NCBI GenBank assembly: GCA_965235115.1
Contig: OZ249436.1
Location: 3,722,001 to 3,786,000, forward strand
DNA: 64,000 bases
Reading direction: 5' to 3'
DNA from: Laetmonice hystrix
Lineage: Eukaryota
Below the pieces are notes generated by a model. That model did no database searches, was not told the DNA's origin, and worked only from the letters and a program-made list of their open reading frames with translations. The position numbers and the translations under genes were made by a program. Shown here piece after piece: positions 23,288-52,929 of the stretch (its first letter is position 1; the number at the start of each line of letters is the position of its first letter).

Positions 23288-24604
23288 GTCAGAACGTGCC
23301 ACGCGCCGAAAGGGGCGGGGGAGCTCCGACTTTGGGAATATAAAAGGCCATCGGTGCTATTTCCCGGCTTCTCAGCATCAAACTAAAGAGCTTTCGGTGC
23401 CGACCTTTTGCTTTTTTTTTGAAAGATTAATGTATTAATCAGTGAGGGATTAATCAGGGGGCTTGCCTCCCCTTAGATCTTCCTTTTTTGTATGAAGATG
23501 TATTATACTATTAGTACCTACAGTTACAATGAAATCATGCCGAGCGTAGCGAGGCAAAACAAATTTTTTAGGTGGGCCCCACCTGGCCGTTGACGTCACA
23601 AAAACAGTATCAAGCAATATTTATCAGAAGCCAAAAAAGTTGACGATTAGGCCTAAAACACACCAAATAAAATAGAGACCATCCCCATCCTACTTGCCAC
23701 TTTCTATTCTACCACACTAGGCCTAGTAAAAATTGGTAAACTTCACTCATTATTTGAATACATTCACGCATGAGGTCTTTTTCTTCAAAATCAAATAGGA
23801 AGGCCCAACATGGGGGTGAAAAATGTTGACGGCCGCAGGCCTAACGCTGTCAGACAATAATTAAAGCGTGGCCTAGATTTCCTAGAGCTTAAGATTGACC
23901 TGAATATTCAGGTCTATGAGCTAATTAAGCAAGAGACGGTACAGGGGCAGATCCAGCTTTTTCAAGTAGGGGGGCCAACGTTTTTAGGGACGCAACCGGT
24001 GTGACTGTACGAGCGCCGAAGGCACCAAGCCTTGCTAGGGGGTCCGGGGGCATGCCCCCCGGAAATTTTTCAAATTCAAGGTGTAATTTGGTGAAATCTG
24101 ATGCATTTTGGAGCACAAAGCTATTTAAAAACCAATGATGTCAAAAGTTTTATGTAGCCCTACAATGCCGTGAGGCGCCATGGACGGCAGGAGGGGCGCC
24201 ATGAAATATATATATTTTAGGGGGGTCCAGACCCTATGTGACCCCCTACCCTGGATCCGCCAGTGTGGTAGGACTAAGGTACACAGGGAAGCTGCAGGGG
24301 ATCTAGGCCGCGGTTAGGCCCATATTAATTATAGAACAGCAAAGCATAGACCTATCTCCTAAACACATGACATAGGCTTAGGCCTGCGAAGGCCAAGATT
24401 AAAAATGATTAAAATCTATCTTTAATTTGCCTCCCATGGGCAATTCACCTTAAAAAGCTAGGCATAGGGAGTATAAGAAAACCTGTAGATCTATCTATTA
24501 GGCCTAGCTTCAACTTCAAGGAGCCTTTGACCTTTTTAGGTCGCCAGCAAAACTGGGGGGGGGGGGGACATGTCCCCCCCGTCCCCCCGGCAGCGGCGCC
24601 CCTG
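23103..24604. mobile_element. TIR element containing nested poly-G MITEs
   Basis: Perfect 16-bp TIR CAGGGGCGCCGCTGCC; 7-bp TSD GAGAGAG; inner element ~23942-24265 (CAGGGGCAGATCCAG..CTGGATCCGCCAGTG) and another left end at ~23229. Confidence 0.85.
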
Positions 24605-24905
24605 GAGAGAGTTGACACTAGGGGGCGCCACTACAACTTCATACCTGGCATATGAGAGTAAAGGTCTGTTTTGCTTGATAAATGAAAATAAAAAAATTCT
24701 CAGCCTAGTTTACGGATAAGGGAAGACAGCTGATGACCAGGGCAATCCATCAGAATGGCCAAAATTATGCTACATCGTGTTTCTTAGATGCTAGAGCGCG
24801 AGGAGTAAAGAGCATGCCACTTAGAGAGATGCCAAGTAGAGCCGGAAGTTTCCAAATGGCATATGAAAGAGTAAAGGTCTGTTTTACTTGATAAATGGAA
24901 ATAAA

Positions 24906-27900: not shown

Positions 27901-27960
27901 AGACCTTTACTCGCAGATGCCATCTAGGAACTTGTGGTGGCGCCCCCTGGTGTCAACTCC
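24906..27960. repeat. 463-bp tandem repeat (~6.6 units, each 213+250 bp related subunits)
   Basis: (C/T)AGACCTTTACTCTTTC recurs at 24909, 25372, 25835, 26298, 26761, 27224 and 27687. Confidence 0.95.
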
Positions 27961-32500: not shown

Positions 32501-35187
32501 GTTTGTAATTAGAGCAAATATGTAACGTTATCCATCCCTTATACTGGAAGACATAATACTTGAAATTGGAAATACTTTTTTTTAAATGTTAGTCTTATTG
32601 AGTTAACTATTCGTAACTGCTGCCAGTTTCAGCCCGCGTAGTGTCGTCATTGAAACCAAGAATTGTCCTATGCTGTGCTGTGGAAGGATATAAAACCGAG
32701 GGCCTGAAAAGTATTGTTCTTTCCTTGCAGCAAATCAAACGTTCACAGATTAGAAAAGGTATGGTGATGGTGTCTCCACGGCTGGAACCAAAGGCATGCT
32801 GGGAGTTCGAGGGAGAAATCCTTGTTCTTCATCATCCTACCACAATAAGCTGCAAATACCAGGCCATGGGTGAGTACCAGGCCATGGGTGAGTGTACCAG
32901 GCCATGGGTGAGTGTACCAGGCCATGGGTGAGTGTACCAGGCCATGGGTGAGTGTACCAGGCCATGGGTGAGTGTACCAGGCCATGGGTGAGTGTACCAG
33001 GCCATGGGTGAGTGTACCGGGCCATGGGTGAGTGTACCGGGCCATGGGTGAGTGTACCGGGCCATGGGTGAGTGTACCGGGCCATGGGTGAGTGTACCGG
33101 GCCGTGGGTGAGTGTACCGGGCCGTGGGTGAGTGTACCAGGCCGTGGGTGAGTGTACCAGGCCGTGGGTGAGTGTACCAGGTCGTGGGTGAGTGTACCAG
33201 GCCGTGGGTGAGTGTACCAGGCCGTGGGTGAGTGTACCAGGCCGTGGGTGAGTGTACCAGGCCATGGGTGAGTGTACCAGGTCGTGGGTGAGTGTACCAG
33301 GCCGTGGGTGAGTACCAGGCCATGGGTGAGTACCAGGCCATGGGTGAGTGTACCAGGTCGTGGGTGAGTGTACCAGGCCATGGGTGAGTACCAGGCCATG
33401 GGTGAGTACCAGGCCATGGGTGAGTGTACCAGGCCATGGGTGAGTACCAGGTCGTGGGTGAGTGTACTAGGCCGTGGGTGAGTGTACCGGGCCATGGGTG
33501 AGTACCAGGCCATGGGTGAGTGTACCAGGCCATGGGTGAGTACCAGGCCATGGGTAAGTGTACCAGGTCGTGAGTGAGTGTACCAGGCCATGGGTGAGTG
33601 TACCAGGCCATGGGTGAGTACCAGGCCATGGGTGAGTGTACCAGGCCATGGGTGAGTGTACCAGGCCATGGGTGAGTGTACCAGGCCGTGGGTGACTACC
33701 AGGCCATGGGTGAGTACCAGGCCATGGGTGAGTGTACCAGGCCATGGGTGAGTGTACCAGGCCATGGGTGAGTGTACCAGGTCGTGCGTGAGTGTACCAG
33801 GTCGTGGGTGAGTGTACCGGGCCGTGGGTGAGTGTACCAGGCCATGGGTGAGTGCACGGGGCCGCGGGTGAGTGCACGGGGCCGCGGGTGAGTGCACGGG
33901 GCCGCGGGTGAGTGTACCAGGCCATGGGTGAGTGTACCAGGCCATGGGTGAGTGTACCAGGCCGTGGGTGAGTGTACCAGGCCATGGGTGAGTGTACCTG
34001 GCCGTGGGTGAGTGTACCAGGCCATGGGTGAGTGTACCAGGCCGTGGGTGAGTGTACCGGGCCATGGGTGAGTGTACCGGGCCATGGGTGAGTGTACCGG
34101 GCCATGGGTGAGTGTACCAGGCCGCGGGTGAGTGCATGGGGCCAGGGGTTTGTGCACCGGGCCGCGGGTGAGAGTACCGGGCCGCAGGTGAGTGTACCGG
34201 GCCGCGGGTGAGTGCACGGGGCCGCGGGTGAGTGCACGGGGCCGCGGGTGAGTGCACGGGGCCGCGGGTGAGTGTACCAGGCCATGGGTGAGTGTACCAG
34301 GCCGTGGGTGAGCATACCAGGCCGTGGGTGAGCGTACCAGGCCGTGGGTGAGCGTACCAGGCCGTGGGTGAGCGTACCAGGCCGTGGGTGAGCGTACCAG
34401 GCCGTGGGTGAGCGTACCAGGCCGTGGGTGAGTGTACCAGGCCGTGGGTGAGTGTTACTCCACCATAAGACACCAGGTGGCGTGGTGGGGGAAAACATCA
34501 ACACCTGTTGTAAATGTGCTCCACTAGGTGGCGCACCACGGGGACCCCAGGCACCGTAACAAAGGGGACATGTATCGGCCTGGAAAGTGTTACGTTAATA
34601 ACAGTACGGTTAATGAGAAATTCTAGAATTCAAGTGGTTTAATGTTGTTGTCATGTCAGGAATTCAAGAAAGCTCTTGCTGTGTTTGGATTTAATACGTA
34701 AGTATTATATATGAAATTCTAATGCAGCCAAACACACTAATATGAGTATATTATTGTTGCATTATTTTTATATGTCGTGAATACCTTTTTGATTTCAGTG
34801 CATGTAGGAAGTGTGAGGCAGACAGCATCCATCCTCTCCATGTCACAAGAACACCTCAGAACTGGCGACAAAGCCCAGGTCCGATTCCGCTTCATTAAAA
34901 ACCCTGAGTACCTCCGCACGGACATGCGCATGGTCTTCCGTGAAGGTCGCACAAAAGCTGTTGGAAACATTAGCAGATTATTTCCACACGTCAGTGCAAC
35001 TGCCCAGAACACCAGGCAGCAGAGGGCAGCAAAAAAGGCAGCAGAATCACACCATCAGTTGAAACCACAAAATGAGCCGCAGAAACCAAGTAAAAAGAAC
35101 CGGAGAAGTCGAGGCCGGGGGTATAATCCAACAGACGAGGCGCCGGGGAAAGAAAACAAGGAAATAGCCACAACATCTACAACTTGA
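29363..35187 (+). CDS. GTPBP1: GTP-binding protein 1 (translational GTPase, eEF1A/SelB-related); 9 coding exons, 1890 nt, 629 aa
   Basis: Exons 29363-29524, 29807-29915, 30188-30368, 30552-30894, 31186-31424, 31676-31820, 32318-32500, 32731-32869, 34799-35187 join via GT..AG introns with consistent phases. G1 GNVDAGKS, G3 DLAG, G4 [35 protein letters not shown] matches GTPBP1 rather than GTPBP2 as I recall the family. Confidence 0.95.
29807..29915 (+). CDS. GTPBP1: GTPBP1 coding exon 2 ([19 protein letters not shown])
   Basis: Acceptor ttttcag|, donor |gtaag, phase 0 to 1. Too short for the ORF track; translated by hand. Confidence 0.88.
30188..30368 (+). CDS. GTPBP1: GTPBP1 coding exon 3 (..[15 protein letters not shown])
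   Basis: Acceptor catcag|, donor |gtcagc, phase 1 to 2. Confidence 0.9.
30373..30466. repeat. 11-bp minisatellite in GTPBP1 intron 3
   Basis: CATCTGTTAC(A/G) x ~8.5, starting just after the donor. Confidence 0.9.
30552..30894 (+). CDS. GTPBP1: GTPBP1 coding exon 4 (P-loop, switch regions)
   Basis: [27 protein letters not shown]; ttgcag| and |gtgaga. Confidence 0.96.
31186..31424 (+). CDS. GTPBP1: GTPBP1 coding exon 5 (TKID motif)
   Basis: [15 protein letters not shown]..; tgcag| and |gtgagt. Confidence 0.95.
31676..31820 (+). CDS. GTPBP1: GTPBP1 coding exon 6
   Basis: [26 protein letters not shown]; tgcag| and |gtgagt. Confidence 0.95.
32107..32353. repeat. 60-bp tandem repeat spanning the intron 6 / exon 7 acceptor
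   Basis: Four near-identical units, each with atttcag|GGTGTGGGAAC. Confidence 0.95.
32318..32500 (+). CDS. GTPBP1: GTPBP1 coding exon 7 (domain II)
   Basis: [25 protein letters not shown]; uses the last of four duplicated acceptors. Confidence 0.93.
32731..32869 (+). CDS. GTPBP1: GTPBP1 coding exon 8
   Basis: [24 protein letters not shown]; ttgcag| and the first G|gtgagt donor, phase 1. Confidence 0.92.
32857..34454. repeat. 18/20-bp minisatellite built from the exon 8 donor site (~80 units)
   Basis: TACCAGGCCATGG|GTGAG(TG) repeated. Confidence 0.96.
34799..35187 (+). CDS. GTPBP1: GTPBP1 last coding exon (domain III and basic tail)
   Basis: tttcag| then (V)[26 protein letters not shown]; stop TGA. 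Confidence 0.93.
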
Positions 35188-38684: not shown

Positions 38685-38731
38685 GGGGTCGATATTATAC
38701 GGTATCGTGGAGAGAGATAAACTGCAAGTAT

Positions 38732-38769
38732 CGAATCTCTTGAGACAGAGTGTGGCCCTGACAAGGGCC
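38732..38769 (-). terminator. Histone-type 3' stem-loop and HDE-like element, copy 1
   Basis: Sense strand ACAC-GGCCCT TGTC AGGGCC-ACACTCTGTCTC-AAGAGATTCG; hairpin 38754-38769, 30 nt after the stop. Confidence 0.7.
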
Positions 38770-38799: not shown

Positions 38800-39120
38800 T
38801 CACTGGTGCTGGTCGCCATCATCCTCGCACACCTCCTCCCAGTCGACCTGAAACTCCTCCATGAGGCGGTCCTCCATATCGTCCAGGAGGTCGGCACGGC
38901 TGTTGGCGTACTCCCAGAACATGTTCCTCACTCCCTCCAGGGTGACCAGACGGAGCCGGTGTTGGTAGCGGAAGGTTCGGCGGTTCTTGCGGAGGGCACG
39001 GTCGTGTTTGGTCCTCATGTCCCTGATACGGTTGTTGAGGAGATTGACTTGCTGACAGGCCCTCTTGAACTTGCGGTCCATCTGGCGCATCTCTGAGATG
39101 AGTCTTTGAACTGGAGCCAT
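38800..39120 (-). CDS. Small intronless helical protein, family copy 1 (106 aa, unknown function)
   Basis: ATG..TGA ORF MAPVQRLISEMRQMDRKF..LEGVRNMFWEYA..DQHQ, conserved across 6 paralogues; TATATAA ~80 nt upstream; 3' hairpin. Confidence 0.85.
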   Translation of the reverse strand: MAPVQRLISEMRQMDRKFKRACQQVNLLNNRIRDMRTKHDRALRKNRRTFRYQHRLRLVTLEGVRNMFWEYANSRADLLDDMEDRLMEEFQVDWEEVCEDDGDQHQ

Positions 39121-39331
39121 GACTGTAGTCAGTTATGGTGGGGGAATGGTTGCAAGGTGAAGGCTGAACGAAGTGTGTTTCCAAGTAATCGTAGTGTCGG
39201 TTATATACGGTGGGAAAGACAGCGTGGAAGTGAGTGTTGATAACAAGAGGCGTTTGTGAGGTGCGCCATGGAGTGCTAACGCTGACCTAGTCACTCAGCT
39301 CTGACACCTGACAAAGGTGTCAGACCGATTG

Positions 39332-39502
39332 CAGGCACGTACCCAGGATTGTGCTTAGGGGGGGGGGGGGTTCCATCAGGACAAGAGGGCTGCCCGGGGG
39401 CTACCTGTGTTTTTGCACCAGTCGACCTGGGGACCGGAGGGGGCCGGGGGGGGGGGGGGGGGTCCGGAACCCCTGGAACCCCCCCCCCTGGGTACGTGCC
39501 TG
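39332..39502. mobile_element. MITE in the copy 1 promoter
   Basis: TIR CAGGCACGTACCCAGG / CCTGGGTACGTGCCTG; GATTG on both sides; sits between two copies of a ~75-bp promoter segment. Confidence 0.85.
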
Positions 39503-40698
39503 GATTGTGAGGTGCGCCATGGAGTGCTAACGCTGACCTAGTTACTCAGCTCTGACACCTGACAAAGGTGTCAGACCGTGCACGCCTAGCCCTGAGATCA
39601 AGGGCGCTTCTTTCTAACACGTGACGTGAAGTCATTAGCAGGTAGCCGTCCTGTAGCAAGAGCATGACCAATTCAACGTGTTTTTATATAATGGACGTCA
39701 ATCCTGATGGAATCTGCCTGAATTCCTCTTAGTTTAGTTTATTTTAGGTCTCCCTCCATAAGAGGGCGCCTCGGTATTTCAATTCGAAAGATGTGACTGT
39801 AATGGCTTTACCGCTGGTGTAGTTCATACTAGCCCCGTAAGAGGGCGCCTAGGCATGTAATGGACGTCAAGGCTGACTCAATTCCTCCCTGTTCCTTCTA
39901 CTTATTACTCCCATCATAAATTGTCGGCTCAGTATTGATGGTGTTGAAATCAGTGAGCGTAATCCCCCTATATAGGCCTACCCGCCGTTTAATTCATGCC
40001 CCCTCCGTTAGACGGCACTGAAGTATCTGGCCATGCAGTCGCCGTGTTGCTTGGCGTATGATGACTGCTGTGTTGTAACTCAGCTCTTTCTGCCTTTGAT
40101 ATGGTTACATTTCATTCATGCGATTACAGGCCTTTTCTTTGACATAATATGATTTCAAATTCAAAATCATATGGATACTGTTGATTCTGTGGGCATTTTA
40201 ATGTTTCTCGTTGGAATGTATGTTTCCACCGTCCCCGAGTTAAAAAAGAATTATAGTTTAGCTGCGATATACATGTGCATCTATAGACGTAGCCTATACT
40301 AGGTTGTGTGCACAGAAAACAGCCGGCAACAATGCGTGGAAAAAGACTAGAAGCTGTTCAAGAATAGGAAAAGTGGATAAGGGAGGTTGATGCATGACGA
40401 AAGAAAGCAGTCAATTCTGAACGGTTTTCTGTTCAAGATACTTCATATTTCATATGAATATTTGGAGATTGTAAAATATCTGGCGGATTTGCTTGTAAAT
40501 GTAGGAATTTTTATATAGGCCTAGGCAGGATGTAAAATTCCTTCCTCAATCATTTCAGGAAGACCTGCCTCTCTATCCACATAGGTTACAAAACAATGAT
40601 TCATTGAAGAACTTAGAAAGGGCTTGATATAGGGTCAAGGTAGACGGCTGGCAAAACATATTATTCTAAGGGTTTAGGTAGAATTATACAACGAATAT

Positions 40699-40736
40699 CG
40701 ACTCTATTGAGACAGAGTGTGGCCCTGACAAGGGCC
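40699..40736 (-). terminator. Histone-type 3' stem-loop and HDE-like element, copy 2
   Basis: Same hairpin at 40721-40736, then ACACTCTGTCTC-AATAGAGTCG. Confidence 0.7.
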
Positions 40737-40766
40737 GTGTAGGTTTGTGTGAGAGAATGGTTCTCT

Positions 40767-41087
40767 TCACTGGTGCTGGTCGTCATCATCCTCGCACACC
40801 TCCTCCCAGTCGACCTGAAACTCCTCCATGAGGCGATCCTGCATATCGTCCAGGAGGTCGGCACGGCTGTTGGCGTACTCCCAGAACATGTTCCTCACTC
40901 CCTCCAGGGTGATCAGACGGAGACGGTGTTGGTAGCGGAAGGTTCGGCGGTTGTTGCGGAGGGCACGGTCGTGTTTGGTCCTCGTGTCCCTGATACGGTT
41001 GTTGAGGAGATTGACTTGCTGACAGGCCCTCCTGAATTTGCGGTCCATCTGGCGCATCTCTGAGATGAGGTCTTGCGCTGACGTCAT
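40767..41087 (-). CDS. Small intronless protein, family copy 2 (106 aa)
   Basis: MTSAQDLISEMRQMDRKF..; TATATAA on - at 41164-41170; 3' hairpin 40721-40736. Confidence 0.85.
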   Translation of the reverse strand: MTSAQDLISEMRQMDRKFRRACQQVNLLNNRIRDTRTKHDRALRNNRRTFRYQHRLRLITLEGVRNMFWEYANSRADLLDDMQDRLMEEFQVDWEEVCEDDDDQHQ

Positions 41088-42455
41088 TGTGCTATAAGAC
41101 TGGTTGTGATGTTTACCGGGTGAATAGCGAGCGAAGTCTGCTCTCCAGGCATGTCCGTATTAGTTATATATGCTAGGTCGAACTTAGCGTGGAGAGTTTA
41201 ATGAGCGATGATGCTGACACGGCCTCCTGCCCAGTACGTGGTCGTGCCACATCTCGCGAATTACTCAAGTAAACAGTTTGACATGTAGTCATAAAATTAC
41301 TCAAGTAAACAGCTTGACATGTAGTCATAAGTCTGGAACTCAAATCAGTGACATGGCGACATGGCGCTTCAAGGATTACGTAATACCAAATGAAGCCTAT
41401 TTACTGCCCATCCCACCCCTCGATCGTGCCAAGAGCCCTGCCCCGTGACACCCCCCCCCCCCCGCGTACCCAGCCGTGGCGTTACGTGTGTAGGACACCT
41501 TATCAATTAGTACTGAGTTGGTAAACACATGATCAGGGAGATGTGTTAACACCACGCCTGCTGCCCTGGACCTCTCATTGCGGCCAGCCGCTTCGATTAG
41601 GAATAGATTAATTATGTTGATAGTCCTCGAGCCACAATATCCAATCTTTGTTCACAAGGCATTTTATATATCCCCAGGTTGATCAACGCACTGAAATAGA
41701 AATGTTTGTGGTGTGGTTTTGATATAAAAATCATACTTCGGCACCACGTAAAGGGGGGAATAATATATGTCACTATGATATATTCCTTTATCATCAGCAT
41801 ATTATTTTGACCTTTGTTCATATCTGCTGTCCGTTTTTGTCTCACCCTAAATCTATTTTAATCAATAAACATTTAAAAGGCCTCTTTCTACATCTCCTGG
41901 CAGACTAACCTATTTACAAATTAGGCCTGATCAGGCTCGTGTTGGGTGGGGCGGCGGGGGTGTGGGTGGGGGTGTGGGTGGGGGTGTGGGGTGGGGTTCC
42001 GGACCTCCTGCCCCCCCCCCGAGAATAGTTTTTTTTTCTCTTATATTCAACGGAATAACATCGAACGAGCAAGTGCGAAGCATTCCCGCCGTTTTGAACC
42101 CGTTGAGAGATAAATCCACAAAATATAACGCCCTAAAATGGCCCACAAATTGCAGGAAATCGCGTCTCACAGCTTCTACTTTTTAAAAATATCCCGAGGA
42201 CCCACCCGCTGAAAATCCTGGACACGCGCCTTCTGATAGTGGTCGATTTCTTTCACATTTCCTTAAGTTTTACTCTACGCCAGTGAGACGTATAAAATGC
42301 TTACTTAAAATGGTTACTTCTTTAAATCGCTCCTTTTTAAAATTAATATTACACCGCGTTCTGGGATCGTTGGTGCGATAAAGCCAACAGTTATAGGGCT
42401 TCAGAACACAAGTGTTGGAAGGCGGAGATCTCTTAGTACGCGTTGTATTGACAGG

Positions 42456-42855
42456 CAGGGGCGCCGGAAGCAAATTATTATTGGGGGGGCAAGAGAGCTG
42501 AAGCGAAAGTCATAGGCTACAACATGCTTAGTAAAGCAGGATCGGAGGCCCTCCCCAAGAAAATTTTAAAAACTACACACCTTAAAACGCTTTTCTACGC
42601 CATTTTGAGGCAGGATTTTTTATGTTTTGAAGGCGTAAATGAATAAATTACAATGTATCAATGTATCATTAGGACAATCTACCCAGTCTTTGACGCGACC
42701 AAGTCATGGTTTCAACAGGCCTACTGTATGTGGAAAAACCTGACTTTTTTTCATTCATGATCACAGATTATTGGGGGGGCGATGCCCCCCCCCCCCAACC
42801 AGATTATCGAGGGGCGGTCGCCCCCCCCCCTGCCCCCCCGCTTCTGGCGCCTATG
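42456..42855. mobile_element. hAT-like MITE
   Basis: CAGGGGCGCCGGAAGC..GCTTCTGGCGCCTATG termini, 8-bp TSD TTGACAGG. Confidence 0.85.
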
Positions 42856-42902
42856 TTGACAGGACCTTTAGTTGTGAGAACTGACACTACCTGGTTTAGT
42901 TA

Positions 42903-43138
42903 CGTTATCGTAACAGTTATCTCTGGAACTGATTCGGCAGTCAACTCCTAGTATATCAACCTGACGCAGCGTTGAATTCAGCAATACAACACAAGTCAAA
43001 GGTCAACATGTGAGTGATCGTTATCGTAACAGTTATCTCTGGAACTGATTGGGCAGTCAACTCCTAGTATATCAACCTGACGTAACGTTGAATTCAGCAA
43101 TACAACACAAGTCAACGGTCAATCAACATGTGAGTGAC
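42903..43138. repeat. ~116-bp direct duplication
   Basis: cgttatcgtaacagttatctctgg..aacatgtgagtga occurs twice. Confidence 0.85.
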
Positions 43139-43729
43139 GGTTTCCGAAAAAAAAGTAGGCCTACCGTCGAGTCAAAGGTGACCCAACTTCATTAAAAAGG
43201 TGGTTTCACAGATGTTGCTTTAACGTATAATGCCGTCAAGGCTCTTTTTTGAATTTCTGAATTTGAATTTAGAAGGCCAAAAAACTTCTCGCTATTTCCC
43301 GGCATCTGAAGTGATGTGAAGTTCACAAAGCATTAAGGGCTATAGCCTACCAATAATTTTTGTCATTTCTTAAAAAAAGGCGACCCGCGCCTGGCATTTA
43401 GGCCTACTCACACATATTATAGGCCTAGGCCTAATTGTTTGGGCAAATGATTACCCGAACATGCTATTTCGACTCCAAAAATATTTTACGCACGTTCTCC
43501 CCAGATTAGCCCCAAAATGAAAAGCGCACGGCGCTGCATCTGGAAGAGGTTTCATCTAGTTCACCTCGTCGGTGATACCGGTAGGCCTTCTTCTGGGCAA
43601 TGTGACAAAGGGGGAAAAGTTTAAAATAATTGAGGGACTATTTCTCTGGTCGTCCCTGGAGCCCCCCCCCCCCCCCCGCCCCACGGAGAAGGGAGTGTTG
43701 ACAGTCATCTTACCCAAACAGACATTTTC

Positions 43730-44408
43730 TTATAGACACCTTCCCGTCAGCAGCCCTTGTAGGCCTAATACTGCTGCCTGTACATGTATACTCTGAGAAA
43801 CGACACTAGGCCTAGAGACACCTTCCCGTCAGCAGCACTAGTAGGCCTAATACTGCTGCCTGTACATGTACTCTGGGAAACGACAGTATAGACATCTTCC
43901 CGTCAGCAGCCCTAGTAGGCCTAATACTGCTGCCTGTACATGTATACTGAGAAACAACACTATAGACACCTTCCCGTCCGCAGCCCTAGTAGGCCTAATA
44001 CTGCTGCCTGTACATGTACTCTGAGAAACGACAGTATAGACACCTTCCCGTCAGCAGCCCTGGTAGGCCTAATACTGCTGCCTGTACATGTAGGCCTATA
44101 CTGAGAAACAACACTATAGACACCTTCCCGTCCGCAGCCCTAGTAGGCCTAATACTGCTGCCTGTACATGTAGGCCTATACTGAGAAACAACACTATAGA
44201 AACCTTCCCGTCCGCAGCCCTAGTAGGCCTAATACTGCTGCCTGTACATGTATACTGAGAAACAACACTATAGACACCTTCCCGTCCGCAGCCCTAGTAG
44301 GCCTAATACTGCTGCCTGCACATGTATACTGAGAAACAACACTATAGACACCTTCCCGTCCGCAGCCCTAGTAGGCCTAATAGTACTCTGAGAAACGACA
44401 CTACAGAC
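43730..44408. repeat. ~70-80-bp minisatellite (~9 units)
   Basis: tatagacaccttcccgtc(a/c)gcagccctagtaggcctaatactgctgcctgtacatg.. repeated. Confidence 0.9.
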
Positions 44409-44738
44409 AGGTTATGTTTAATCTCGTTGCTCAGAGCAATGTGAGTTCATGCCCGTCATTGATTAGGCCACGTACGGTTAGTCTGCAAGAATTTTTACAA
44501 CTCTTCTTATATCGTAAAGTGACACGTCTTCAGGGTTGGTTAAAATTTTGATTTGGGGATTATCCTGAGAAATATTTTAACTGCTAATCGAAGCGCCTTC
44601 CTCAAGTGACAGGTTCCGGACCCCCGACTGGGCGCCGTGTTACACGGCTCGTACGTGGGGTGGTGGAGTGGGGTGGGGTGGGGTGAAGTGCTGGGGTCGG
44701 GTGGGGTGGGGTGGAGTGGGGGGGGGGGGCTGTCAACA

Positions 44739-44927
44739 GGCTACATTTGGTGTTACGTAATCCTCGGGGCGCTATATCGTCACTGAGCCACGTTACAACT
44801 TTATGACCACATGTCAAAGTGTTACACTTGATTAGTTCGCGAGATGTGCCAAGACCACGTGATGGGCGCCGTGTCAGCCTCATCTCTCATTATTCCCTCC
44901 ACGCTAAGTTTCACTTTGCATATATAA
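44739..44927 (+). promoter_or_regulatory. Type-B promoter of copy 3 (homologous to the copy 2 upstream region, 41164-41400 on -)
   Basis: Shared islands TTACGTAATCC, ACATGTCAA, TTCGCGAGATGTG, GCCGTGTCAGC, CTCCACGCTAAGTT and GCATATATAA. Confidence 0.6.
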
Positions 44928-44991
44928 GTAAGACCAAGAGGCCTGGAGAACATACTTCAAGCATACCCGGTAAGGTTCACAGCAAGTCACA

Positions 44992-45309
44992 ATGTCCTCA
45001 GCGCAAGACCTCATCACGGAGATGCGTCAGATGGACCGCAAGTTCAAGAAAGCCTGTCGTCAAATAACTCTCCTCAACTATCAAATCAAAGCAATGAGGA
45101 CACGATACGACCGTGCCGTCAGCAACAACTGCCGCACCTTCCGCTACCAAAACCGGCTCCGTCTGGTCAGCCTGGAGGGAGTGAGGAACATGTTCTGGGA
45201 GTACGCCAACAGCCGTGCCGACCTCCTGGACGATATGCAGGATCGCCTCATGGATCAGTTTCAAGTCGACTGGGACGAGGTGTGTGAGAGCGATGACGAC
45301 CAGAGTTGA
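44992..45309 (+). CDS. Small intronless protein, family copy 3 (105 aa, most divergent)
   Basis: MSSAQDLITEMRQMDRKF..; TATATAA 44921-44927; frame kept despite many substitutions. Confidence 0.85.
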   Translation: MSSAQDLITEMRQMDRKFKKACRQITLLNYQIKAMRTRYDRAVSNNCRTFRYQNRLRLVSLEGVRNMFWEYANSRADLLDDMQDRLMDQFQVDWDEVCESDDDQS

Positions 45310-45345
45310 ATCAGTGAAGAAAGCCATTCTCACAATTGTTTATTT

Positions 45346-45555
45346 ACCAAACGGCCCTTGTCAGGGCCACACTGTGACACCAAACGGCCCTTGTCAGGGC
45401 CACACTGTGACACCAAACGGCCCTTGTCAGGGCCACACTGTGCCACCAAACGGCCCTTGTCAGGGCCACACTGTGACACCAAACGGCCCTTGTCAGGGCC
45501 ACACTGTGACACCAAACGGCCCTTGTCAGGGCCACACTCTGTCTCAGAAGAGTCG
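45346..45555 (+). terminator. Six tandem histone-type stem-loops (33-bp period) with one terminal HDE-like element, copy 3
   Basis: Hairpins start at 45353, 45386, 45419, 45452, 45485 and 45518, each preceded by CCAAAC; only the last is followed by ACACTCTGTCTC-AGAAGAGTCG. Confidence 0.7.
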
Positions 45556-45718
45556 ATACGAACCTATATCTCTCTCAAATCAAATTTATAAGTGTGTATC
45601 CTCTAACCGATCTCATTCATAATGCTAATGAATTATCAGTATAAAAGATGACTATATCAATATTCATATCCTTCCCCTGGTTATTCCCAAATGGTAAGTC
45701 CCAGATAAATTTGGGGTA

Positions 45719-46042
45719 TTAAGGGTCAGGGATAGGGATAGGGATAGGGATATTCTGTCTTTGGGAGGTGTAGGGACCGAGGTTAGGAGTTAGGAATAAG
45801 GTAAGGGCTATGGATCTTTACTTACGATAAATTTTCGTGGCTTTGAAGTTACCACGGGGGATAGATAGGGGTCTATCTATAGAGTCTAACCTTCCCCTTA
45901 ATATCTGGCAATTTGTCAAGCACCTTAAGGAAGTACAAAAAGAGCAGTTCTTAAAGGCACACATGGAATAGCCTATCCCTAACCCCTAACCCCAGTCCCT
46001 ACACCTCCCAAAAACATATCCCTAACCTATCCCTGACCTTAA
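45719..46042. mobile_element. Foldback MITE-like element with (T)AGGG-rich arms
   Basis: TTAAGGGTCAGGGATAGG..TTGGGAGGTGTAGGGAC mirrored by GTCCCTACACCTCCCAA..CCTATCCCTGACCTTAA. Confidence 0.65.
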
Positions 46043-46552
46043 CCCAAACCCCTTCCCAAAAACTTTGTGGGAAAGTTATCATAGGGGTAGTCTATGGGTA
46101 AAATTTGACACGATCGACACGCCGACACGGCCGTAAAATGAAGGGCGACATTGCGACACCCTCTTCTTAATGTGCGACGGACACAGCTCCCAAATGGCTG
46201 ATAAAATTCGACGTGAGACATCCAGAATAATCAATAGTGAGACACACTGATTTAATTAACAGGTGACACACGACATCGACAATTATTAAATAGCGACGTG
46301 CGACATAGGCCTACAGTAGAAGCGACATAGATCTACCATATCCATCTAGGCCTAAATCTCTTACACTTTTACAGTCTTAGTCTTACACTGGAGCCAGTCT
46401 TAGTCTTAGACTGGAGTTTAAAAAGTGACACACGACATGATTGAATCGTTTTAAAAAGTGGCATGGGACATGGACAAATTTCTTATCATGTGACACTGGG
46501 ACACAGGCATAAAAAATAGGACCCATATATACCCTTATCATAGGGGAATAAC

Positions 46553-46967
46553 CGTAAGACTACCCTGAATATGAAATCATATACCGGAGACATCGAGCTG
46601 ACAGACGTCTTGTCATGGCAGTAAGACAATCCTGAATATGAAATCATATACCGGAGACATCGAGCTGACAGACGTCTTGTCATGGCAGTAAGACGACCCT
46701 GAATATGAAATCATATACCGGAGACATCGAGCTGACAGACGTCTTGTCATGGCAGTAAGTAAGACAACCCTGAATATGAAATCATATACCGGAGACATCG
46801 AGCTGACAGACGTCTTGTCATGGCAGTAAGTAAGAAAATCCTGAATATGAAATCATATACCGGAGACATCGAGCTGACAGACGTCTTGTCATGGCAGTAA
46901 GACGACCCTGAATATGAAATCATATACCGGAGACATAGAGCTGACAGACGTCTTGTCATGGCAGTAA
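46553..46967. repeat. 67-71-bp minisatellite (6 units)
   Basis: ctgaatatgaaatcatataccggagacatcgagctgacagacgtcttgtcatggcagtaag repeated. Confidence 0.92.
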
Positions 46968-47038
46968 AAGAAAGACTGTTTCGGTGCTCACCGTTTCATT
47001 CTAACTTGGCGCCATATTCTGATAAAAGCAGGCTATCT

Positions 47039-47206
47039 GGCCCCAGTTTCAAGAAAGTGGTTAAGTTAACTAAGTTGGTTAAGATGAATTTTAACCAGAA
47101 CTTAACCAATCAGGAAGCAGAGAATTGACCAATTTTGGTTAAAGTCAGAGTTAACCACGATTTTAACCAACTTAGTTAACTTAACCACTTTCTTGACACC
47201 GGGGCT
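47039..47206. mobile_element. Palindromic MITE (Harbinger-like)
   Basis: GCCCCAGTTTCAAGAAAGTGGTTAAGTTAACTAAGTTGGTTAA mirrored at the right end. Confidence 0.8.
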
Positions 47207-47740
47207 GGCCGTCCCATGATTCCCCGCAACGATGTGTAACTGTGTGTTTATTGCGTCCGCCAACATATTAAATAGAGAACACGGACTAACTTCCCATCCC
47301 TGCTACATGCCGCAGGGTAAAATCTACTCGACCAAGTCTGCCATGTCAAAGTGGGGCTTGTTGGGAACAGTTGACTTGTGACGAGAAATGACGATAACCT
47401 TGCCCCCTTTGTTTATCAATCAATTTCTACGAAAGAGCGCATCACCAAAACAGCAAAAGAAAGCATTTTGTTACTTTCTACCGAATGCCTCTTTATAAAA
47501 TATCCATTTAATACCCTTATCTCTTATTCACGTATCTATTTATCCATTTATTTCATTCGGTCTTGTTTGGCGCACTGTAGTGAGGTATTTCCCAAGCCAG
47601 ACTATCGTCGATATGCCCATAGCGTTATCACATTTGAGGGCGATGGAGGGTTTCAAAATACATTTAAAAAAAGAATATGTAGACTCAATTGCTACGTCAT
47701 AACTTCACACTATGAATCTGTGACGTGCCATAAAAATATA

Positions 47741-47839
47741 TTTCAGGGGTCACGCTGGGTCACCAAACTTAGATATATGACAATTTTCCTGAAATTCTCA
47801 TATATGATTAGAGTTTGGTGACCCAGCGTGACCCCTGAA
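47741..47839. repeat. Short perfect-armed palindrome (MITE remnant)
   Basis: TTTCAGGGGTCACGCTGGGTCACCAAACT / AGTTTGGTGACCCAGCGTGACCCCTGAAA. Confidence 0.8.
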
Positions 47840-48019
47840 AACAATTGTAGGAGAACTTTCTCCTAGTCATGGATAGTCCATGAGGAGAAGAGTCCCTGGG
47901 GACCATTCATTAGTCCCCCTGCCCCGTAGATTCGAATCGGATCCTATTTCCTGAATAAGATCCTGACTTGGCGAATCGTGTACCGTGTACCAGATGCTAA
48001 CTTCACACTGCTGCTACAG

Positions 48020-48145
48020 CATCTGACACATTTGTCAGGTGTCAACTGAGCGACTAGCTCAGAGTGAGCACCCTTTATCGCACCTCACGACCGCCTCTTG
48101 CCATCAACACTCACCTCCACACTGATTCTTTCCCACCATATATTA
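48020..48145 (+). promoter_or_regulatory. Type-A promoter of copy 4 (also copies 1, 5, 6)
   Basis: CTGACAC-N9-GTGTCA inverted repeat, GCACCTCAC, CAACACTCAC and TATA are shared with the diverged copy 1 upstream region. Confidence 0.55.
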
Positions 48146-48222
48146 CGGGCACCAGCATTACTTGGAAACAATCATCGTTAAGCCTTCAGCTTGCAACAAT
48201 TCCCTCAGAATATTTTACAGTC

Positions 48223-48543
48223 ATGGCTCCAGTTCAAAGACTCATCTCAGAGATGCGCCAGATGGACCGCAAGTTCAAGGTGGCCTGTCAGCAAGTCAAT
48301 CTCCTCAACAAACGTATCAAGGAAATGAGGACCAAACACGACCGTACCGTCCGCAAGAACCGCCGCTCCTTCCGCTACCACAACCGGCTCCGTCTGGTCA
48401 CCCTGGAGGGAGTGAGGAACATGTTCTGGGAGTACGCCAACAGCCGTGCCGACCTCCTGGACGATATGGAGGACCGCCTCATGGAGGAGTTTCAGGTCGA
48501 CTGGGAGGAGGTGTGCGAGGGTGAGGACGACCAGCACCAGTGA
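48223..48543 (+). CDS. Small intronless protein, family copy 4 (106 aa)
   Basis: ATG at 48223 aligns with the paralogue starts (the ORF-track extension to 48064 starts at GTG and runs through the promoter); TATATTA 48139-48145. Confidence 0.85.
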   Translation: MAPVQRLISEMRQMDRKFKVACQQVNLLNKRIKEMRTKHDRTVRKNRRSFRYHNRLRLVTLEGVRNMFWEYANSRADLLDDMEDRLMEEFQVDWEEVCEGEDDQHQ

Positions 48544-48573
48544 AGAGAACCATTCTCTCACACAAACCTACAC

Positions 48574-48611
48574 GGCCCTTGTCAGGGCCACACTCTATCT
48601 CAAAAGAATCG
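48574..48611 (+). terminator. Histone-type 3' stem-loop and HDE-like element, copy 4
   Basis: Hairpin 48574-48589, then ACACTCTATCTC-AAAAGAATCG. Confidence 0.7.
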
Positions 48612-49654
48612 ATGATTGCTAAATAGGCGATAGCAAATACCTTAGAGTGATATGTTTTGATTCCTGTCTTTGGTGACTCTTCTCAGCTCCCTTTTAGTTC
48701 CACAACGAACCATTCTTTGTAATCCATGTGGAAACAAAACGATGTCGGCCGAGAATGATTAAAAAAGAATTTCATATCGTGCCTCTATAACAGTTAAATG
48801 GCATGCTAGTTATATTGCAAGATCCCTGTACTCCGATATAATTAAATACTTTGAAAAGAAGATAGTAAAAAGTAACCAACTTCGTATCAATTTCTGTATT
48901 CATGCCTCCCTCTATGTGTCCCCTTTTCTATTCTTGCACAGTTTCTAGTGCTTTGCCACGCATTGTTGCCTGGCTTTTCTCTTTGCAGGCGGCCTATAGA
49001 CACGAACACATTAATAATGTTCACAAATTCAACAGTATCCATACGATATTGAATCTATATCATATTATAATCCTAATGAAAAGCAAGGTTAAGACAATGA
49101 ATGAAATATAACACATTCGTAGGAAGACAGCTAGAGCTGAGCTTTTAGGCGGGGGTAATACGCTGAGTTGATCGAGCACGGCATGGTCAGGTACTTTGGC
49201 GCCCTCTATCGGAAGGGGCGTAAACTAAAACGATGGTCGCGGAATTTGGCTCACTATGAACACGGTGGCGACCTCTTACGGAGGGAGTTACTAAGTAGAA
49301 TGAAGTCACAAGACGTGGGGCTGAACGAATTAACGCCATGAGATAAAAAGACAGTGATGTAATTATCCGATTGGGCGAGAACTGCTACCAGCTTCTAATG
49401 ACTTCACGCCAAATTCGAAAATAGGCGGCCATGCTGGCAGGGCTACAGCGTCTAACACATTTGTCAGGTGTCAACTGAGCGACTAGCTCAGAGTGAGCAC
49501 CCTTTATCGCACCTCACGACCGCCTCTTACCATCAACACTCACCTCCACACTGATTCTTTCCCACCATATATTACGGGCACCAGCATTACTTGGAAACAA
49601 TCATCGTTAAGCCTTCAGCTTGCAACAATTCCCTGAGAATATTTTACTACAGTC

Positions 49655-49975
49655 ATGGCTCCAGTTGATAAACTTATCTCTGAGATGCGCCAGATGGACC
49701 GCAAGTTCAAGGTGGCCTGTCAGCAAGTCAATCTCCTCAACAACCGTATCAGGGACACGAGGACCAAACACGACCGTGCCGTCCGCAAGAACCGCCGCTC
49801 CTTCCGCTACCACAACCGGCTCCGGCTGATCACCCTGGAGGGAGTGAGGAACATGTTCTGGGAGTACGCCAACAGCCGTGCCGACCTCCTTGACGATATG
49901 GAGGACCGCCTCATGGAGGAGTTTCAGGTCGACTGGGAGGAGGTGTGCGAGGGTGAGGACGACCAGCACCAGTGA
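49655..49975 (+). CDS. Small intronless protein, family copy 5 (106 aa)
   Basis: MAPVDKLISEMRQMDRKF..; tandem duplicate of copy 4 at a 1432 bp offset. Confidence 0.85.
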   Translation: MAPVDKLISEMRQMDRKFKVACQQVNLLNNRIRDTRTKHDRAVRKNRRSFRYHNRLRLITLEGVRNMFWEYANSRADLLDDMEDRLMEEFQVDWEEVCEGEDDQHQ

Positions 49976-50005: not shown

Positions 50006-50043
50006 GGCCCTTGTCAGGGCCACACTCTGTCTCAAAAGAATCG
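50006..50043 (+). terminator. Histone-type 3' stem-loop and HDE-like element, copy 5
   Basis: Hairpin 50006-50021, then ACACTCTGTCTC-AAAAGAATCG. Confidence 0.7.
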
Positions 50044-50931
50044 AAGATTGCTAAATAGGCGATAGCAAATACCTTAGAGTGATATAATTTGACTCCTGTC
50101 TTTCATGACTCTTTTCAGCTCCCTTTTAGTTTCCCCAATGAACCATCCTTTGTAATCCATGTGGAAACAGAACGAAGTCGTCCGAGAATGATTAAAAAAG
50201 AATTTCATATCGTGCCTCTATAACAGTACATTAAATGGCGTGCCAGTTATATTGCAAGATCCCTGTACTCCGATATAGGCCTAATTAAATACTTTGAAAA
50301 GAAGATAGTAAAAAGTAACCAACTTCGTATCAATTTCTATATTCATGCCTCCCTCTATGTGCCCCCTTTTCTATTCTTGCACAGTTTCTAGTGCTTTGCC
50401 ACGCATTGTTGCCTGGCTTTTCTCTTTGCAGGCGGCCTATAGACACGAACACATTAATAATGTTCACAAATTCAACAGTATCCATACGATATTGAAAGTA
50501 TATCATTATAATCCTAATGAAAAACCAGGTTAAGACAATGAATGAAATATAACACTTTCGTGGGAAGACAGAGCTGAGCTTTTAGGCGGGTGTAATGCGC
50601 CGAGTTGATCGAGCACGGCATGGTCAGGTACTTTGGCGCCCTCTATCGGAAGGGGCGTAAACTAAAACGATGGTCGCAGAATTTGGCTCACTATGAACAC
50701 GGTGGCGACCTCTTACGGAGGGAGTTACTAAGTAGAATGGAGTCACAAGTCGTAGGGCTGAACGAATTAACGCCATGAGATAAAAAGACATCCGATTGGG
50801 CGAGAACTACCGGCTTCTAATGACTTCACGCCAAATTCGAAAATAGGCGGCCACGCTGTCAGGACTACAGCGTCTAACACATTTGTCAGGTGTCAACTGA
50901 GCGACTAGCTCAGAGTGAGCACCCTTTATCG

Positions 50932-51694: not shown

Positions 51695-51980
51695 ATGGCT
51701 CCAGTTGATAAACTCATCTCTGAGATGCGCCAGATGGACCGCAAGTTCAAGGTGGCCTGTCAGCAAGTCAATCTCCTCAACAACCGTATCAAGGACATGA
51801 GGACCAAACACGACCGTGCCCTCCGCAACAACCGCCGCACCTTCCGCTAACACAACCGGCTCCGTCTGGTCACCCTGGAGGGAGGGAGGAACATGTTCTG
51901 GGAGTACGCCAACAGCCGTGCTGACCTCCTGGACGATATGCAGGACCGCCTCATGGAGGAGTTTCAGGTCGACTGGGAGG
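51695..51980 (+). pseudogene. Family copy 6, pseudogene
   Basis: TAC>TAA nonsense at 51848-51850; V>G in the invariant LEGVRN; deletion of the C-terminus, stop and 3' hairpin; transposon insertion in the promoter. Confidence 0.85.
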
Positions 51981-52929
51981 GACTGAACCATTCTTTGTAA
52001 TCCATGTGGAAACAGAACGAAGTCGGCCGAGAATGATTAAAGGAGAATTTCGTACCGTGAGTCTATAACAGACCTACATTACATGGAAATATATCAATTA
52101 TATTGCAAGTTCCCTGTGTTATATTGCAAGTTCCCTGTGTTATATTGCAAGTTCCCAGTTATATTGCAAGTTCCCTGTGTTCCGATATAATAGCAACTGT
52201 TCCGCAGGTAGCCTCGCCGTGCCGATTTTACCTCTGGAGGTTATTTTCATTCACATGGAATTTACTAAGTACCCCTTTGACAATTATGAAATAGTAGGCC
52301 TATAGTCTTTAAACTCGTTATTGACATCATGAACAACTGACACGGACATCAAAAAGCACCCTGCCAGGTCAGTGTCACACAGGGCCAATGGGTGTGAATG
52401 TCATCCAAACCAGGCTTTCGACTCAGGCTTAAAGTTTGTCATGTCACCAACTGACCAAAAGTTTGTCATGTCACTTCAACCCCATGCACAGCCAAGAATC
52501 AAAGTATTCTTTTATTCAGTTCTCCCCCTATATGTAAGAATTAAAACCATAATGCATTACACACAGGTACAGTTCAAAACCACAGGTTTTCAGTTGTTAG
52601 ATCTGAATGCACATATTCAGTCAAGTCCATCAATAAAAGTTTATTTGACTGACTTGAGATAATCACGTAGGAACCAAGTTCTGGGACTAGAGTGTCTCAG
52701 GACACTTTTTATTATCATTTGTATCGAGCTGAGAGTAACTAAAAATTCAGAGTACTAAAAAAGGGGAACTGATCCTTGGTCCAAGTCCTATACCGTTCGA
52801 AGATCTGGCGTCTGGAGAACACACGATAACCCATTGAGAGACAACCCAGCCTGCACGCACCACTTAATAAGCGCTGCTGGACGGTGCATTTTCGCTGCCA
52901 GCGCAGCCAGCTGTCAGGAGCTGGTCAGG

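Follow-up and report, generated by a model that had tools for sequence, protein, structure and literature searches.

A multicopy family of small non-histone genes in Laetmonice hystrix with histone-type 3′ signals

Genes and signals at the locus

The window considered here is a stretch of 64,000 nucleotides of the Laetmonice hystrix genome (assembly GCA_965235115.1, contig OZ249436.1, positions 3,722,001 to 3,786,000 of the forward strand). It contains a cluster of five intact, intronless open reading frames of 105–106 aa, pairwise 70–92% identical, and one broken copy; an earlier note on this DNA had described a family of proteins of about 106 aa, and the five frames agree with it. The features are as follows, in window coordinates; HDE is the histone downstream element, and its score is the identity to the H3/H2A HDE of the same genome.

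38730..38741, minus strand: copy A HDE, 10/12 identical
38754..38769, minus strand: copy A histone-type stem-loop, 6-bp stem, loop UGUC, 30 nt past the stop (RF00032 24.9 bits, cut-off 34)
38800..39120, minus strand: copy A coding sequence, intronless, 106 aa
39201..39207, minus strand: copy A TATA box, 87 nt 5′ of the ATG
40697..40708, minus strand: copy B HDE, 11/12 identical
40721..40736, minus strand: copy B stem-loop (RF00032 25.7 bits)
40767..41087, minus strand: copy B coding sequence, intronless, 106 aa
41164..41170, minus strand: copy B TATA box
44921..44927, plus strand: copy C TATA box
44992..45309, plus strand: copy C coding sequence, intronless, 105 aa; the most divergent copy in the window
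45353..45533, plus strand: copy C stem-loops, six in tandem, 33-nt unit
45546..45557, plus strand: copy C HDE, 11/12 identical
48139..48145, plus strand: copy D TATA-like box, TATATTA
48223..48543, plus strand: copy D coding sequence, intronless, 106 aa
48574..48589, plus strand: copy D stem-loop (RF00032 26.4 bits)
48602..48613, plus strand: copy D HDE, 11/12 identical
49568..49574, plus strand: copy E TATA-like box
49655..49975, plus strand: copy E coding sequence, intronless, 106 aa
50006..50021, plus strand: copy E stem-loop (RF00032 27.9 bits)
50034..50045, plus strand: copy E HDE, 10/12 identical
51695..51985, plus strand: copy F pseudogene; codon 52 is a stop, the 3′ end is truncated and the stem-loop lost

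The upstream motif is TATATAA in copies A–C and TATATTA in copies D and E; the promoter of copy B differs in type from those of A, D and E. Copy C has an HDE only behind the last of its six stem-loops (45518–45533). The stem-loop of copy D, the query in most searches, is predicted to form a 6-bp hairpin of −11.4 kcal/mol (z −3.5). The cluster runs on past the end of the window, with 11 further family matches. Three sequencing runs (contigs from one sample) cover the gene and its flanks alike, and are uninformative for expression, transcript ends and copy number.

The stem-loop and the downstream element

The earlier note had spoken of a histone-like gene architecture, and the wider comparison makes that case far more strongly than its author could: a hairpin lies behind 21 of 22 paralogues in the genome (the set joins the five copies in the window with 17 other loci, a single one from each divergent site, and leaves out broken copies). 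Approached from the other direction, the best 13 RF00032 hits genome-wide all exceed the cut-off, and 11 of them lie directly behind family matches. Homologues from other genomes tell the same story: among 58 that could be scored, 46 have a hairpin no more than 200 nt past the stop, and 267,359 control bases contain none; in the remaining 12 none was found. When 20 foreign loci were scored with RF00032, only four exceeded the Rfam cut-off. One of the hairpin-less homologues, L094, has an intron, and its 3′ end runs off its contig.

A hairpin filter blind to sequence picks out 37 of the 58 foreign homologues, where about seven would be expected; G occupies stem position 2 in 34 of the 38 hairpins so found, and the combination of G2, U7 and U9 occurs in none of 157 control hairpins. 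Stem pairs 1, 3 and 4 covary, with 32 double changes against 11.3 ± 2.3 after shuffling, in 40 rows that were chosen by a filter demanding pairing and that include related, non-independent sequences; pair 4 is mismatched in ten of these rows. Hairpins occur in nine of 13 clusters drawn at 60% identity, with a median core identity of 42%. The 3′ UTR is short, and the 5′ flank of the hairpin is A-rich.

The second signal follows the host. In 17 of 21 own genes the HDE is identical at nine or more of 12 positions to the HDEs of host H3 and H2A, and this includes paralogues only 29–45% identical to copy D; the host type recurs in just three of 46 foreign homologues. The own-genome HDE begins 13–14 nt past the hairpin, and downstream of the foreign hairpins a purine run occupies +13 to +21. 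The host genome has a gene for SLBP, identified by a match to the SLBP domain; for U7 snRNA, Rfam gave no hit in the genome, and a pattern search gave two matches against four in the reversed control.

Hairpin-plus-HDE sites that have no clear reading frame also occur on dispersed repeats, with identical 34-mers at about ten sites, and for this reason the signal alone is no proof of a working gene. The reading of one open frame, L142, as H2A-derived was considered and rejected.

Size, spread and evolution of the family

The 627-Mb host genome holds at least 150 family matches, among them a near-identical array of 71 copies, and nine contigs or more carry clusters, which run in either orientation. 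Arrays were recorded on contigs C1, C19, C6, C5, C8 and C2; core histone genes lie on C4 (36.5/35.8 Mb) and C20 (7.2 Mb), H1 on C4 (36.1 Mb) and C20 (6.8–6.9 Mb), and no linkage between family arrays and histone clusters was found on the host contigs. A separate 15-kb contig consists of 2.14-kb units in tandem, and each copy seen there is followed by a hairpin; no TATA box was found 5′ of these copies.

Elsewhere the family comprises 1,135 protein clusters, those with a species name being molluscan ‘hypothetical’ proteins. A first scan of genome contigs gave no family match; two weak bacterial matches of 35–37 aa in a second scan (L149, L150) were treated as chance. Beside the multicopy genes there is a slow-evolving single-copy paralogue that lacks the hairpin, the TATA box and a consistent acidic tail; its orthologues are 66–79% identical from octopus to mussel to L. 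hystrix, against a median core identity of 42% in the hairpin class. This conserved class, called hairpin-less from one gene (L046), accounts for 13 of 15 species-named database records. Three gene models from Mya fall in the other class, two of them fused tandem copies. Both the predominance of hairpin-less genes among named records and the fused models are what one would expect if poly(A)-based data miss the hairpin genes. There is a weak indication that fusion is not otherwise a habit of the family: of 8,000 candidates scored, one was a longer form, a Mya protein in which three tandem units are fused.

Purifying selection, which the earlier note had expected, can be seen in dN/dS values of 0.16–0.71 in 19 of 21 pairs, the pairs being non-independent; two outlying pairs gave 3.4 (13 nonsynonymous changes, one synonymous) and 0.94, and the test found no significant excess of amino-acid change among copies. 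The tree (FastTree, 103 sequences by 89 columns) and the copy list display rapid birth and death with many lineage-specific clades; deep support in the tree is weak and it has no outgroup, so the order of events cannot be read from it. All this is best explained by an old lophotrochozoan gene family, with a non-histone product, built on the gene plan of replication-dependent histones.

The protein

The earlier note described a charge-polarised helical protein, basic in its first two-thirds and acidic in its tail, with no transmembrane segment. Counts in the window copies bear this out: residues 1–70 hold 15–19 K/R and 6–7 D/E, residues 71 to the end two K/R and 12–14 D/E, and hydropathy over 19 residues peaks at about −0.04. 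The acidic tail, true of the window copies, fails as a family-wide trait: of 151 sequences that do not belong to the conserved class 75% have it, and of 66 that do, 14%. Because its sequence is unconserved and it is mostly absent from the slow-evolving class, the tail is, on the sequence evidence, not the core function of the family. The motifs that had been called invariant fare in a similar way. All three match each of the five window copies, but their invariance does not extend beyond this recent group: in a set of 276 sequences from the family, EMRQMDRK and the FQVDW tail prove to be local. The residues conserved at 91–99% in the same 276 are F18, C22, Q24, R38, Y39, A42, R51, Y52, R55, G63, Y71, A72 and A76.

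The helical hairpin that had been proposed is recovered in an AlphaFold2 model (pLDDT 91.7), with helices at 2–45, 48–90 and 94–102, the two main ones, of about 43 residues, packed antiparallel. On this model the product is best read as a soluble protein whose helices form an antiparallel hairpin, followed by a variable acidic tail. Near the hairpin tip the model places a conserved basic and aromatic surface: K17, Q24, R38, R41, F50, R51, Y52, R55 and Y71.

No named family could be assigned, as the earlier note had also concluded. Pfam (25 and 32 members scanned), PHROGs and sequence profiles of solved structures gave no match over cut-off; Foldseek against PDB and BFVD gave nothing at E ≤ 0.001, and VIA-align generic hairpins only, results that exclude no family; the ESM Atlas offered unnamed clusters with a low recognition score. 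In the literature searched (main texts, few of them from subscription journals) we found no paper on the family or on non-histone stem-loop genes of invertebrates, and no main text mentions any of six family database identifiers. What emerges is a family of small proteins that is new and whose surface is strongly conserved.

Probable expression by the histone pathway, and alternatives

The perspective that best accommodates these signals is that the genes give rise to non-histone mRNAs without poly(A), processed through SLBP and U7; judging from the sequence signals we put this RNA-level step at about three chances in four. If the genes follow the established route, they would be transcribed by RNA polymerase II, SLBP would bind the hairpin and the U7 snRNP would pair with the HDE; cleavage a few bases past the stem would then leave an mRNA of roughly 0.45 kb with no poly(A) tail. 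It also seems probable that the genes are expressed by the histone pathway to yield a bulk product on the histone timetable, the mRNA being made and destroyed on a histone schedule: in S phase, in the cleavage embryo or in the germ line. The cell might then require the protein in large amounts and at the same time as histones, as a stoichiometric partner in chromatin or histone handling, its conserved surface binding DNA or a chromatin protein and its acidic tail buffering histones. That role, close to the earlier note's suggestion that the basic half might bind nucleic acid and the acidic tail histones, is tentative, and we would bet against it at modest odds. The single-copy paralogue, TATA-less and hairpin-less, would stand to the multicopy genes as H3.3 stands to H3, as the constitutive form.

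A second perspective accepts histone-type processing as real and places it elsewhere: the family would be an amplicon of the germ line or early embryo and not a general component of S-phase chromatin, with the hairpin serving either maternal storage and timed translation (through an oocyte SLBP) or testis expression, and array turnover reflecting reproductive selection or genetic conflict. The rapid birth and death, the 71-copy array, the broken copies and the many lineage-specific clades are in keeping with this, as are the relaxed dN/dS among recent copies and a hairpin class that evolves much faster than the conserved one, unlike histones; recurrent variants of the loop and of pair 4 could tune binding. 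Conservation above 90% of the 13 core residues, and the lack of a significant excess of amino-acid change, speak against it. We regard it as a possible but minority explanation. It shares its RNA-level mechanism with the histone-pathway reading and differs from it only in tissue and role.

One might also suppose that the pathway is used by other members while the window's own copies, in which loop position 2 is G, are duplicates that are weak or in decay, and either silent or polyadenylated. Their stem-loops score 24.9–29.0 bits, below the Rfam cut-off of 34 that diverged own-genome paralogues pass; one copy in six is a pseudogene, one hairpin is duplicated six-fold, and dN/dS between the closest copies is 0.45–0.94 or more. 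Yet the same G is found in 13 of 46 foreign hairpins, and the UGUC-loop hairpin has a predicted folding energy equal to that of a canonical-loop paralogue. With stem G2, A/C flanks, spacing and HDE intact in all five copies, and frames open in five of six, this explanation is improbable.

Least probable of all are selfish or virus-derived cassettes that borrow the histone 3′ signal for expression in dividing cells and spread by transposon-assisted duplication with no benefit to the host: the scatter over nine or more contigs in both orientations, the dispersed 34-mers (such modules do move) and a LINE-type reverse transcriptase frame near one paralogue cluster would suit them, but no viral or transposon identity emerged: IMG/VR (three scans), BFVD and PHROGs gave no relative (invertebrate endogenous viruses being poorly covered there), one of 44 neighbouring frames (flanks mostly 1–3 kb) has a transposon domain, two neighbours are host exons (Ras-like and glycogen debranching enzyme), and the single-copy orthologue is conserved from octopus and mussel to the host under purifying selection.

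What would follow

The fullest form of the histone-pathway reading is a ‘sixth histone-class’ family, unrecognised so far, in molluscs and their relatives: a non-histone-fold hairpin protein made together with histones through SLBP and U7, with multicopy genes coupled to replication and a constitutive single-copy counterpart, acting in bulk in chromatin or histone handling and missed by poly(A) sequencing, with U7 serving further non-histone genes. Taken whole, this is speculative and rather unlikely. In one published account (PMC4604434), the mRNAs of replication-dependent histones are the sole cellular mRNAs of animals that are not polyadenylated. If the reading is right, this conserved non-histone family, with its hairpin retained in many lineages and its HDE tracking that of the host's histones, would be a natural exception to the histone-only rule. 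Likewise, gene annotation that relies on poly(A) RNA would be missing a class of genes more numerous here than the listed H3 genes, with at least 150 matches where H3 has 20 canonical rows. Non-histone candidates may also figure in a survey of histone 3′ elements from 2008.

Comparison with known systems

The closest likeness is to metazoan replication-dependent histone genes (SLBP/U7, RF00032): the family shares with them intronless genes, a TATA box, multicopy tandem arrays, a GC3 of 0.73–0.81, a stem-loop mostly 16–140 nt past the stop and an HDE at +13/+14 of the host H3/H2A kind. Its hairpin-less single-copy paralogue resembles the replacement variants of histones. Unlike histones, the products have no histone fold or H1/H15 domain (Pfam, 25 and 32 members), evolve fast and are encoded outside the histone clusters.

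In shape the protein recalls ESCRT-III/CHMP and the N-terminal hairpin of PspA/Vipp1: a long antiparallel helical hairpin with a basic N-terminal and an acidic C-terminal part, a polarity that CHMP proteins share. The fold lists include several chains of this type, with rmsd 1.1–2.0 Å over 79–91 residues at 7–17% identity, a likeness of shape only. All Foldseek E-values exceed 0.5, unrelated coiled coils reach the same Z of about 10, the Snf7/PspA signature is absent from Pfam and solved-structure profile matches, and the product is about half as long as is usual in ESCRT-III/CHMP. A weak Pfam match to the ING N-terminal domain (PF12998; E 0.017–0.037 in two of 25 members), with one row of the fold list (8cok), was rejected as membership of the ING family: the scores are 15.0–15.3 bits against a cut-off of 23.9, there is no PHD finger, and the match is not listed for 32 broader members. 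With acidic-tract histone chaperones such as nucleoplasmin, prothymosin and ANP32, the expanded class shares a D/E-rich unstructured tail (75% of its sequences); unlike theirs, this tail comes with no sequence or domain match, is unconserved and is mostly missing from the conserved class.

The genes and their protein

The five intact ORFs (copies A to E, on contig C1 of a 627-Mb, 35-contig assembly) lie where the earlier note had placed them, are intronless and 105-106 aa long, and all carry the motifs it quoted; pairwise identity is 70-92%. The charge split it described is also there: residues 1-70 hold 15-19 K/R and 6-7 D/E, the remainder 2 K/R and 12-14 D/E. No intact copy has a hydrophobic segment, in keeping with its statement that a TM segment is absent. 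Around these genes are the following:

10700-18500 and 24600-27960: 23-nt satellite, about 340 units; 463-nt repeat array, one unit inverted
30220-35187 (+): translational GTPase exons, one with a GTP_EFTU match, some 3.6 kb from copy A
47052-47193 and 47731-47845: long inverted repeats, both in the interval from copy C to copy D
51695-51985: copy F, broken by a stop at codon 52, 3' end lost

One intron of the GTPase, which we take to be GTPBP1-like, contains a long tandem repeat. The two inverted repeats are probably MITE-like elements; the one at 47731-47845 is very high-copy in the sequencing runs examined.

The expectation that dN/dS would fall below 1 was borne out in 19 of 21 pairs (Nei-Gojobori; 0.16-0.71); one further pair stands at 0.94 and one at 3.4 (13 N, 1 S), the pairs being non-independent, as all come from seven close genes. 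At the sequence level, purifying selection on the family genes is evident.

AlphaFold2 predicts the helical hairpin that had been proposed (pLDDT 91.7; helices 2-45, 48-90 and 94-102), with a core made of heptad positions. The non-core residues C22, Q24, R38, R51, Y52, R55, L56, G63, Y71 and A76 are conserved at 88-99% in 276 sequences, a pattern less suggestive of a generic coiled coil than of a specific binding surface close to the tip of the hairpin. The family could not be named before and cannot be now: Pfam scans gave no family at cut-off, and solved-structure, Foldseek and VIA-align searches returned generic hairpins only (among them ESCRT-III, PspA, prefoldin, ING3 and SMC arms).

Two classes can be told apart, one slow-evolving and single-copy in this genome, the other diverse and often arrayed. 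The slow class keeps 66-79% core identity among octopus, mussel and this animal. The D/E-rich tail taken as typical of the family is so for the diverse class (75% of 151 sequences), but not for the slow class (just 14% of 66).

Family size and spread

A protein search found at least 151 family matches in the genome (150 of 514 candidates scored). Among the matches listed, 71 form a tandem array on C19 with a 1.33-kb unit, 17 belong to the cluster that includes the window copies, two further C1 clusters hold about 20 and 7, and C6 has 5; diverged paralogues, with identity down to 35%, are on C1-C6, C8, C21 and C30, and a second query adds others on C2 and C4. Outside this genome, a profile search yielded 227 proteins among 2,402 candidates, and there are 1,135 clusters at 50% identity. 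Species-named entries (15 of 120 among the matches listed) are all molluscan and all 'hypothetical'. The most conserved paralogue of this genome, the single-copy L046, is sister to all of these molluscan orthologues, octopus included, in a weakly supported tree; by that placement the animal would probably be a lophotrochozoan other than a mollusc.

Histone-type 3' ends in this genome

Behind the window genes, the stop codon is followed by 30 nt, a 6-bp stem with a 4-nt loop, 12 nt and a purine-rich element; in copy C the distance to the hairpin is 43 nt, and there are six tandem hairpins (45346-45538). The animal's own H3 and H2A genes have the same stem type, then the element AAAAGAGTCGAT at +14/+15. 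For a wider sample, the five window copies were joined by 17 genes, each standing for one divergent locus, with neither broken copies nor duplicates counted: 21 of the 22 have the hairpin (within 350 nt of the stop, one mismatch allowed), and 17 of these 21 share at least 9 of the 12 positions of the histone downstream element (HDE), among them paralogues just 29-45% identical to copy D. Eleven of the best 13 genome-wide matches to the histone stem-loop model RF00032, all above cut-off, lie directly behind family genes; one other is an H2A gene. Doubled or multiplied stem-loops recur in the family, at L034, L035, L037, L104 and L133, with the HDE behind the last hairpin.

L046, the one exception among the 22, has no hairpin in the 1,222 nt searched and no TATA box; its promoter motifs are, we presume, ETS-, YY1- and E-box-like. 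The genome contains an SLBP domain; U7 snRNA was not found in it.

The family is not located inside the core-histone or H1 clusters of this genome. H1 genes have their own arrays (C4 36.1 and C20 6.8-6.9 Mb), and many divergent histone-fold ORFs lie in tandem apart from the canonical clusters (C10 28.04-28.08, C8 8.45, C3 20.5 and 37.7, C4 14.8 Mb).

Hairpin and HDE occur together elsewhere. At L142:327-668 (C2, in a cluster at 51.2-51.4 Mb with about 12 similar sites), an unrelated intronless 113-aa ORF has a TATA box, stem-loop and AAAAGA element; lacking H2A similarity or a Pfam match, it is a candidate further non-histone gene with a histone-type end. An identical 34-base hairpin-plus-HDE string is dispersed over about ten sites (C1, C2, C4, C5, C7 and C18) besides L139 (C1 29.32 Mb). 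At the single site inspected, it comes after a tandem repeat of low complexity, and no clean ORF is present; this is possibly a mobile element with a histone-type 3' signal. Two more kinds, L140 (C3 0.63 Mb) and L141 (C1 56.39 Mb), have no clear ORF in the upstream 700 bases; one is dispersed on C3, C5, C6 and C8 with the hairpin doubled, and one is clustered at C1 56.38-56.44 Mb.

Homologues in other animals

Scanning metagenomes yielded 58 loci, which hold 63 family ORFs; five with less than 120 nt downstream were dropped, leaving 58 scored. The hairpin lies within 200 nt in 46 of them, against none in 267,359 control bases from the same loci. These foreign hairpins comprise 27 sequence variants; the 5' flank is rich in A, and purines run from +13 to +21. 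As this filter fixes some bases, the test was repeated with a sequence-free one: 37 of the 58 genes have a perfect 6-bp/4-nt hairpin (controls, 0.12 per 200 nt), stem position 2 is G in 34 of 38, and G2+U7+U9 occurs in none of 157 control hairpins. Stem pairs 1, 3 and 4 covary, changing on both sides in 32 cells versus 11.3 +/- 2.3 when shuffled, in 40 aligned rows that are related to one another and pre-selected. Pair 4 is mismatched in 10 of the 40, mostly in the bivalve clade. Homologues that keep such a mismatch, a conserved departure from the perfect stem, are L106, L108, L113, L118, L120, L122, L125, L131, L134 and L143-L148, mostly of that clade. The core of L118 is identical to a Mya arenaria model; bivalves are thus among the hairpin-bearing animals.

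Clustering at 60% identity places hairpin-bearing genes in 9 of 13 groups (median core identity 42%). Because the 12-base histone HDE of this genome has a match in just 3 of 46 foreign genes, against 17 of 21 of its own, the HDE appears, for this one host, to follow the host's histones and not the protein tree, as expected if pairing with the host's U7 snRNA is required.

The hairpin was not found in 12 of the 58 homologues; one is intron-bearing and runs off the contig at its end, two are fragmentary, and the rest look like real losses. L094 (444-1536) has a 318-nt GT-AG intron within the coding region, and its clade neighbours L087 and L089 have no hairpin, L089 lying antisense near a glycogen-debranching-enzyme exon. 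Loci L143-L148 share a contig of 15 kb that had been binned with a bacterial MAG. This contig is a tandem array (unit 2.14 kb) in which each copy seen is followed, 31 nt on, by a hairpin; it is probably host DNA contaminating the bin, as probably is a separate member annotated in a symbiont MAG.

What the genes may do

In histone transcripts, the hairpin is the binding site of SLBP, and pairing of the HDE with U7 snRNP directs the cut. The residues that SLBP contacts are G7 and the As flanking the stem on the 5' side, whereas 3'hExo contacts the loop (PMC12775136). Family transcripts would be handled likewise, and on sequence grounds we put the probability that these genes yield poly(A)-minus, histone-timed mRNAs at about three in four. 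Hairpin and HDE together are treated as hallmarks of replication-dependent genes in PMC5011920, which confirmed S-phase expression in a cnidarian.

The protein might work in chromatin or in the handling of histones and be needed in bulk along with them, the single-copy gene being the constitutive version; we hold this tentatively, at less than even odds. The rival readings need not exclude the RNA-level claim. A germ-line or embryo amplicon that relies on this same processing pathway is slightly less likely still, decay of the window copies is improbable, and a selfish or viral passenger is the least probable.

Several results count against the RNA-level claim, among them the 12 homologues in which no hairpin was found. 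The second loop base of the window hairpins is G, and their scores of 24.9-29.0 bits fall short of the Rfam cut-off of 34; that G is common to 13 of 46 foreign hairpins. Of 20 foreign loci put to the Rfam model, just 4 reach the cut-off. Hairpin-plus-HDE sites on dispersed repeats without a clear ORF mean that the signal can remain where there is no gene.

Comparison with known systems

The literature search, which covered main texts of mostly open-access papers, found no description of this family or of invertebrate non-histone hairpin genes; none turned up in passages of PMC13525598, PMC5368982 and PMC6210712, and a term search of PMC10388802 had no match. According to PMC4604434, replication-dependent histone mRNAs are the sole known non-polyadenylated cellular mRNAs, and non-histone SLBP matches in human cells were judged background. 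The processing system is a known one, and its putative non-histone cargo widespread and undescribed. On every feature that DNA can test, the family genes are like replication-dependent histone genes; they differ from histones in having neither the histone fold nor linkage to histone clusters.
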